Virus record (IMG/VR): IMGVR_UViG_3300035686_000005
Coordinates: 1-64,000 of that record
Strand: one strand, 5' to 3'
DNA from: a virus
DNA length: 64,000 nt
Below: the continuation of a report on this DNA, generated by a model with database tools
The DNA's letters: not shown here

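Follow-up and report, generated by a model that had tools for sequence, protein, structure and literature searches.

Exactly 66 copies of the 13-base palindrome TAAAGTWACTTTA were counted in the window against an expected 0.02, together with one further copy (60332) that carries a C at its centre, so that the sequence-only reading's claim of at least 66 exact copies beyond chance is confirmed and the observation stands as real and highly non-random. The mismatch spectrum is all-or-none, with 67 exact occurrences, none with one mismatch, 5 with two and 45 with three, the two- and three-mismatch counts being those expected from a Markov model. Beyond the 13 bases, a weak symmetric preference of the form yTC...GAr can be discerned. 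The copies are spaced more evenly than random placement would give, both in the coefficient of variation of the intervals (0.57 versus 0.98) and in the largest gap (2322 bp versus 4501 bp expected; P about 5e-5). On the sense strand, 42 copies have A at the centre and 24 have T, and the copies at gene junctions are similarly divided (33 with A, 15 with T). Runs of the same central base along the genome cluster weakly on the + strand (P 0.03), an effect that is gone once gene strand is considered (P 0.30). A comparable dispersed palindrome was found in none of 98 unrelated viral loci (1 Mb), and the literature found on genome-wide intergenic palindromes and on iterated palindromes of cyanophages contains neither the 13-mer nor an account of such an array in a phage.

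In either orientation, stop codons close two of the motif's three reading frames, and the third (AAA GTW ACT TTA) encodes the same peptide, KVTL, both ways. All 17 strictly intragenic copies lie in this KVTL frame, and in-frame copies are present in long genes (tape measure, TerL, PolB, primase and the gene for a 762-aa protein). At gene ends, 32 copies overlap a stop codon or start no more than 20 nt past one; of the 18 that overlap it, most provide the stop themselves, and in four copies the last A is also the first base of the next ATG (TAA AGT AAC TTT ATG). Most window genes are bracketed by copies.

Seven window promoters, among them those at 5063, 7466, 11238 and 61268, share a common layout, in which the motif is followed after 4-9 nt by a -35 box (TTGACA, TTGCAC or similar), 17 nt, a -10 box and AAATACA; the copy at 535 follows closely on a -10 box. 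The early regions show the succession stop codon, motif, terminator hairpin, and at nine of about 12 strong terminators between 1 and 20 kb the motif precedes the stem by 2-15 nt. The promoter sites of the window are centred near -50, and an activator or an upstream roadblock therefore fits as well as a repressor. At locus L283, from a 65.8-kb IMG/VR phage that has early genes in common with the window, there are 29 copies of TAAAG-ASK-CTTTA (motif TAAAGASTCTTTA) in 21.6 kb, and at least 14 repeated early promoters, each ahead of a small gene, read TTGACG-at-TAAAGAGTCTTTA-acc-TATACT, with the motif occupying the non-transcribed spacer. At L158, the terminase-region locus of another relative, three promoters carry one copy 5 nt upstream of TTGACA and another 2 nt downstream. 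Both the L283 and the L158 placements are classical operator positions.

The window covers nearly the whole of a 65,390-bp metagenomic contig (JAXMNB011671963.1, NCBI GCA_034690465.1), part of which also occurs in Logan run SRR11830169. It encodes a tailed phage whose gene set comprises a Mu-type portal, a Mu gp36-like head protein, the large terminase, a tape-measure-sized protein of 1011 aa, PolB, RecT, a conserved TerS-like protein, three HNH endonucleases, a D12 methyltransferase of the Dam-like kind, Arc-like and PAPS-reductase-like proteins, and a primase-helicase-like protein of 916 aa that is homologous to the large PolB-adjacent proteins of relatives, two of which (L156, L159) contain DUF5906. 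Neither megablast nor a tblastn search with TerL revealed a relative among GenBank phages, TerL and ParB-like queries matched nothing in IMG/VR, and a metagenome scan for close relatives returned two short contigs only. TerL nevertheless has 34 homologues in metagenomes, two of which are filed under cyanobacterial MAGs (Waterburya, Chroococcidiopsis); on account of these MAG names and of relatives packed with the cyanobacterial repeat HIP1 (GCGATCGC), we infer that the window phage probably belongs to an uncultivated cyanophage family. Family scans of the window found no integrase, ParA or gp71-like repressor, and no prophage copy turned up in the scan of genomes from 185,579 species; with neither integrase nor ParA found, lysogeny is unsupported. 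Scans of the window for tRNAs and Rfam families gave no match.

For seven TerL homologues, 16-22 kb around the terminase gene was analysed. Contigs of relatives are ENA ERZ27253093 k141_710020 (= JGI 3300034030 Ga0334952_000064), Logan SRR31243219_104968, ENA ERZ27286107 k141_981094, Logan SRR8698732_1528, NCBI JBOFTN010000808.1 and IMGVR_UViG_3300041964_000029. The terminase loci of relatives are syntenic with the window, and each close relative has an iterated palindrome of its own.

Terminase-region loci of metagenomic relatives, with TerL identity, iterated palindrome and number of copies
L123: TerL identity 63%; TAAAG-(TSA/TCG/CGA)-CTTTA; 16 copies
L125: TerL identity 60%; TAAACCGGTTTA, both arms changed symmetrically; 10 copies
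L156: TerL identity 58%; TAAAG-CGCA-CTTTA; 12 copies, 12 of 12 co-oriented with transcription
L162: TerL identity 54%; TAAAG-YAYR-CTTTA; 14 copies in mixed orientation
L158 (Waterburya MAG): TerL identity 49%; TAGAGTWACTCTA, both arms changed symmetrically; 23 copies
L159: TerL identity 47%; TAAAGCTAGCTTTA; a few copies
L163: TerL identity 29%; no motif; 0 copies

Across TAAAGTWACTTTA and variants such as TAAAGTSACTTTA, TAGAGTWACTCTA and TAAACCGGTTTA, the constant element is therefore a pair of 5-bp arms. A change in one arm is mirrored in the other (TAGAG/CTCTA and TAAAC/GTTTA), and the spacer, of 3-4 bases (2 in L125), is lineage-specific and rich in pyrimidine-purine steps. The symmetric arm changes, together with the operator positions at L283 and L158, point to a dimeric protein that would read double-stranded DNA. 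The relatives differ in other short words as well: L156 has 47 copies of HIP1, L162 has 35 and the window has 2, which amounts to 1.6-2.2 per kb in L156 and L162 beside their TAAAG-type motif, and GATC is absent from L123 and L125 and present at normal frequency in the window phage, which carries the Dam-like methyltransferase.

Between the window and L123, nucleotide identity is 57.5% overall and 30% at four-fold degenerate sites, and synonymous sites are therefore saturated. Four of the six intragenic window sites in the five shared genes coincide exactly with a site at the homologous codons of L123, which read, in window and L123 respectively, KVTL and KVAL in primase, KVTL and KVTL in both PolB and TerL, and KVTL and KATL in g361. 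At least five junctions are likewise common to the two (ahead of the capsid, tape measure and TerS-like genes, where the gp36-like gene ends, and behind the gene for a 396-aa protein). In L125, which has different arms, the intragenic copies are at other places and are read as KPVY. The comparison with related phages that had been proposed from the sequence alone thus uncovers both variation of the motif and retention of its position at homologous codons and junctions. The TerL alignment has no gap at the sites relative to homologues, and the sites therefore arose by substitution rather than insertion; an origin as a mobile repeat or by insertion was rejected on these grounds, together with the complete lack of one-mismatch copies and the retention of homologous codons. 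The sites are old and held by selection acting on the DNA itself.

The motif is also found outside this family. A scan of the 2.9 million IMG/VR contigs for a 15-mer returned two motif-rich contigs from phages unrelated to that of the window, V1 and V2 (the latter IMGVR_UViG_3300029913_000052). V1 (47.8 kb, of which 45.4 kb was examined) carries 65 exact copies (1.4 per kb), nearly all of them CTAAAGTWACTTTAG and frequently arranged as stop-motif-GGAG-ATG, and its intragenic copies are all in the KVTL frame; it has no ordinary protein similarity to the window (best blastp E-value 0.02). V2 has 15 copies of TAAAG-N3-CTTTA with varied spacers in 18 kb. A scan for paired TAAAG-N3-CTTTA produced mostly chance matches, plus the loci L235 and L191, the latter, from the 62.8-kb contig IMGVR_UViG_3300025925_000002, with 5 copies in 11 kb. 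The TAAAG/CTTTA arms are thus common to three or four unrelated phage lineages, a distribution that suggested a host factor. A scan of one genome from each of 185,579 species for two copies 15-45 nt apart found no motif-rich host genome in this set, from which the true host may be absent. The scan returned ten isolated pairs in scattered phyla, none in a cyanobacterium and at most one per genome; they resemble ordinary operator pairs or coding repeats, such as one beside a MarR-like gene. Since a genome with at least 1000 copies should have yielded several pairs, the result counts against an enriched host.

Three window proteins are candidates for the reader, that is, the protein presumed to bind the motif.

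Candidate readers encoded in the window
7531-8754, + strand: 407-aa ParB-like protein
22487-23902, + strand: 471-aa ParB-like protein, a distant paralogue of the 407-aa protein
5119-5307, + strand: 62-aa Arc-like protein

The 407-aa protein matches phrog_1033, annotated 'ParB-like partition protein' (E 3e-6), and the L283 phage encodes a 530-aa member of the same family along with three short paralogues of the central or DNA-binding region of the family profile. The family, with 13 representatives among 1.84 billion proteins, is marked by the invariants 'YLxNGNxR' and 'LQxxxNDTT'; word-based searches found no homologue of either paralogue, and searching PDB sequences with the candidates gave either nothing or designed helical proteins only. 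An AlphaFold model of the 471-aa protein built from the family alignment (pLDDT 75.6) has ParB/Spo0J proteins as all of its top five Foldseek matches in the PDB (probability 0.96-1.0, E 6e-4 to 3e-2), including M. xanthus ParB with CDP, pNOB8 ParB-N and T. thermophilus Spo0J, and the protein encoded at 22487-23902 is accordingly modelled with a ParB/Srx N-terminal fold; a single-sequence model of the 407-aa protein was unusable (pLDDT 44). Helical segments around residues 160-230 of the 471-aa model are predicted with confidence, and the ParB-like candidates match an IS3 helix-turn-helix weakly and no Pfam helix-turn-helix model; their segment 'xxxx(V/I)S(N/Q)A' resembles the ParB recognition helix. 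ParB proteins bind palindromes as dimers. The family has 'NGNxR' where the canonical box is GERRxR, with one arginine retained, and departs from the ENLQR box too, and CTP binding is therefore uncertain.

The ParB-like family may also connect the window to V1, whose 430-aa protein matches phrog_1033 (E 1.3e-4), carries 'SGRQRR' and aligns to the family profile over 'YLxxGxxR', 'NDxT' and the putative helix-turn-helix (hhalign E 2.3e-4, probability 44%); its gene has two motif copies at the 5' end, downstream of TTGACA. In each of the three phages whose relevant region was examined (the window phage, the L283 phage and V1), a ParB-like gene accompanies a TAAAG-N3-CTTTA array, and no ParB-like gene is found in the examined parts of L123, L125, L156, L158, L159 and L162, which amount to about a third of each genome, mostly on the structural side. 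Because the motif lies near nearly every gene, finding it ahead of the ParB-like genes carries no specific weight. Among some 60 window proteins compared with PHROG, Pfam and NCBIfam, the structural-region genes in part, there was no ParA/IncC or KorA partner. The third candidate, the Arc-like protein (PHROG E 7e-6), shows the 'DNRSIN' and beta-strand pattern of P22 Arc and Mnt.

We consider it likely that the 13-mer is a protein-binding site in double-stranded DNA. This prediction agrees with the first of the proposals made from the sequence alone, a site for a DNA-binding protein with KorB and ParB as precedents, which the symmetric arm changes, the promoter geometry and the candidate with a predicted ParB fold all favour. 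A ParB-like protein is our candidate for the reader, an assignment that falls a little short of probable, and genome-wide transcriptional control is put forward with similar reserve as the main role of the sites. In the mechanism that we propose, a symmetric dimeric protein encoded by the phage would read the arms TAAAG and CTTTA, each 5 bp long and set apart by a spacer of 3 bp, the likeliest reader being one or both of the ParB paralogues (7531-8754, 22487-23902) through a ParB N-terminal fold and a putative helix-turn-helix. The copies at early promoters would act as operators, 4-9 bp upstream of the -35 box in the window and inside or around the -35/-10 spacer in relatives, and the 60 or so other copies, at most 2.3 kb apart and placed at gene ends, ahead of terminators and in frame in long genes, would act as genome-wide binding or loading sites. 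Bound protein may then block or silence transcription across the whole genome, whether by staying in place as a roadblock, in the manner of Cluster A mycobacteriophage stoperators, or by loading at a site as a ParB/KorB-type clamp and sliding for about a kilobase. The recognition sequence would co-evolve with the phage lineage and give rise to specificity groups akin to immunity groups, and the purpose could be lysogeny, as a plasmid-like prophage, or a temporal switch. For this account as a whole, a phage-encoded dimer, probably of the ParB family, with operators and genome-wide loading sites, we judge the chances of being right and wrong to be about equal. Its boldest form, in which a protein of ParB/KorB type, whose loading sites (roughly one per kb) are held exact by selection even in the terminase, portal, polymerase and tape-measure genes, coats and silences (or partitions, or organises) the entire 65-kb genome, half-site and spacer co-evolve, and distant ParB-like proteins impose the same 13-mer on unrelated phages, is conceivable but doubtful.

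The same genome-wide operator or stoperator mechanism could be served by another reader, an Arc/Mnt-like ribbon-helix-helix (RHH) protein (5119-5307) or another small repressor, which we regard as unlikely. An Arc-type protein would bind as a dimer of dimers on TA(A/G)A-N5-T(T/C)TA, an architecture that the motif shares with the P22 operator core, TAGA-N5-TCTA, and the L158 variant carries TAGA/TCTA boxes outright. Arc itself acts as a tetramer on two TAGA boxes in adjacent major grooves (PMC12645479). Beyond the Arc-like gene of the window, a weak RHH_5 gene adjoins the TerS-like gene in L123, an HTH_3 gene lies beside the primase gene in L156 and L162, and the tendency of small genes to escape BLAST would account for the apparent lack of a shared reader among motif-bearing phages. 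Yet no Arc-like family is found among 20 small ORFs of V1, the small RHH profile has no match in any other motif-bearing locus, and nothing in the window corresponds to the HTH_3 protein of L156 and L162. A reader of host origin, or a host process akin to HIP1, on which phages of the same host would converge while other hosts impose other variants, is quite unlikely. It would explain why V1 is dense in the identical 13-mer with no detectable ordinary shared protein, why the TAAAG/CTTTA arms recur in V2 and L191, and why relatives follow host signatures in HIP1 and GATC, and sites for the host transcription factor CtrA are reportedly found in unrelated phages of Alphaproteobacteria. Against it stand the species-genome scan with its few isolated pairs, no cyanobacterium and no enriched genome, and the distant ParB-like protein that V1 and the window do share; moreover, V1 and V2 came from a search for precisely this motif, and across 2.9 million contigs a chance coincidence of half-sites between independent systems is conceivable. 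A non-transcriptional mark of 'self' DNA, whether for partition or condensation loading, priming by the primase-helicase at sites about every Okazaki-fragment length, a TerS packaging start or a Chi-like nuclease stop, is improbable: the regular spacing of about 1 kb (2.3 kb at most), the retention of in-frame copies in long genes, the irrelevance of orientation for a palindrome, and the primase-helicase-like, PolB, RecT and conserved TerS-like genes of the phage would all suit it, and ParB proteins are first of all partition proteins, but the promoter geometry of the window, L158 and L283 and the placement ahead of terminators are not expected under such roles, no ParA was found, and known primase and Chi signals, unlike the palindromic 13-mer, are short and asymmetric and are read from one strand only.

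The three other proposals of the sequence-only reading fare worse. A signal at the RNA level, for processing, translational coupling or a protein-bound hairpin in polycistronic transcripts, could draw on the many copies exactly between stop and start, in the window as in V1, on the preference of junction copies for a sense-strand A, on the uniform orientation along transcription in L156 and on the 6-8 bp stem (-1.9 to -6.4 kcal/mol) that favourable flanks allow. The 13-mer itself, however, has a minimum free energy of 0 as RNA and -0.5 kcal/mol as DNA, and the L125 12-mer (TAAACCGGTTTA) has no fold at all, energies on which a hairpin function was rejected; the flanks that would extend a stem are weakly conserved, copies occupy promoter spacers that are not transcribed as well as positions upstream of -35 boxes, both orientations occur in L162 and within genes, and Rfam has no match, so that an RNA signal is highly improbable. 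We give equally little credence to microhomology fixed for cassette exchange by RecT, to copies of a small mobile element or to a target of the phage adenine methyltransferase. Most genes, three HNH genes among them, are indeed bracketed by copies, and RecT and the D12 methyltransferase are present, but the sites are kept at homologous codons in essential genes and were made by substitution with no insertion gaps, no gene is common to the window and V1 despite at least 60 shared 'linkers', and decayed copies of the kind that mobile elements leave are missing. Recombination microhomology finds no support, and methylation is disfavoured because the enzyme is Dam-like, GATC is normal in the window phage and absent from two relatives, and the motif contains no GATC.

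Should ParB/KorB-type coating prove true, no replicon would be known to hold a denser or more exact array of protein-binding sites than the window, which would represent a phage counterpart of KorB-style long-range silencing, extending a plasmid mechanism to phages at a site density unreported before. If the sites are what they seem, one specificity is written about 67 times and all copies must change in step, which would make the family a clean model for the co-evolution of a regulator with its sites and for the origin of phage immunity or specificity groups. Selection for a DNA site can, as the array shows, fix four codons (KVTL) in essential proteins over long evolutionary times. The motif variants offer an easy way of assigning contigs of uncultivated cyanophages to lineages, and the 13-mer with its reader may serve cyanobacterial engineering as an orthogonal pair of operator and repressor, or of loading site and clamp.

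Among known systems, the stoperators of Cluster A mycobacteriophages are 13-14 bp long, number 20-30 per genome, occupy an early promoter as well as many positions away from promoters, and vary in step with the repressor (PMC6550527). The window array resembles those of L5 gp71 and Bxb1 gp69 in site length and in having tens of copies over a genome (about 50 kb in the mycobacteriophages), a few in early promoters (seven of the 67 are next to -35 boxes) and most at gene ends or in short gaps; the motif of the window family likewise varies by lineage, with a variant in each close relative, and keeps homologous positions. Stoperators, in contrast, are asymmetric, bound by a monomer and oriented with transcription, whereas the window motif is palindromic and, L156 excepted, of mixed orientation; its 67 copies show no variation, a quarter are intragenic in a single frame, the presumed host is cyanobacterial rather than actinobacterial, and no homologous repressor, integrase or parABS was found in the window. 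The array does not belong to the stoperators proper, because it is neither asymmetric nor oriented and has no homologous repressor or lysogeny genes.

KorB, a ParB-family CTP clamp, has the 13-bp palindrome TTTAGCGGCTAAA as its loading site, from which it slides as far as 1.5 kb and silences promoters (PMC11790492). Its OB site in RK2 has the same 6+1+6 build with a degenerate centre as the window motif (TTTAGC-S-GCTAAA versus TAAAGT-W-ACTTTA), copies of both lie near the -35 box of some promoters and elsewhere far from any, the window candidates have a predicted ParB fold to set beside the ParB-family reader, and the sliding distance compares with a largest gap of 2.3 kb. The window phage differs in having a non-canonical CTP box and no KorA-like or IncC/ParA partner found, and in being a phage rather than a plasmid; of the features of the ParB/KorB class, the modelled fold is the one found so far. 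Site number differs as well, with 67 on 64 kb in the window and 12 OB sites on the 60 kb of RK2. Noc and chromosomal parS sites are also dispersed palindromes read by a ParB paralogue, but the roughly 70 Noc sites scattered over the B. subtilis chromosome are some 60-fold less dense, tolerate mismatches and are untied to gene ends or promoters. HIP1 is likewise an exact palindrome at about 1 per kb, inside and between genes, in a cyanobacterial setting; it is 8 bp long, is a property of host genomes and keeps off promoters and stop codons, whereas no genome rich in the window motif was found. The start-associated sequences of Cluster K mycobacteriophages and the PeSL cassettes of T4-type phages are short conserved repeats at gene starts or boundaries which, unlike the window array, are asymmetric, far fewer, imperfectly conserved and absent from coding sequence. 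The P22 Arc operator, with two 4-bp boxes 5 bp apart bound by a dimer of dimers, finds a parallel in the motif and in the Arc-like protein of the window, but it is a single operator in P22, and no link between an Arc-like gene and the motif was found outside the window. The array is a genome-wide set of operator or loading sites, a new form of a known type, and it differs from both stoperators and KorB OB sites in number, density, the lack of variant copies, even spacing and in-frame copies in essential genes, and from stoperators also in symmetry.

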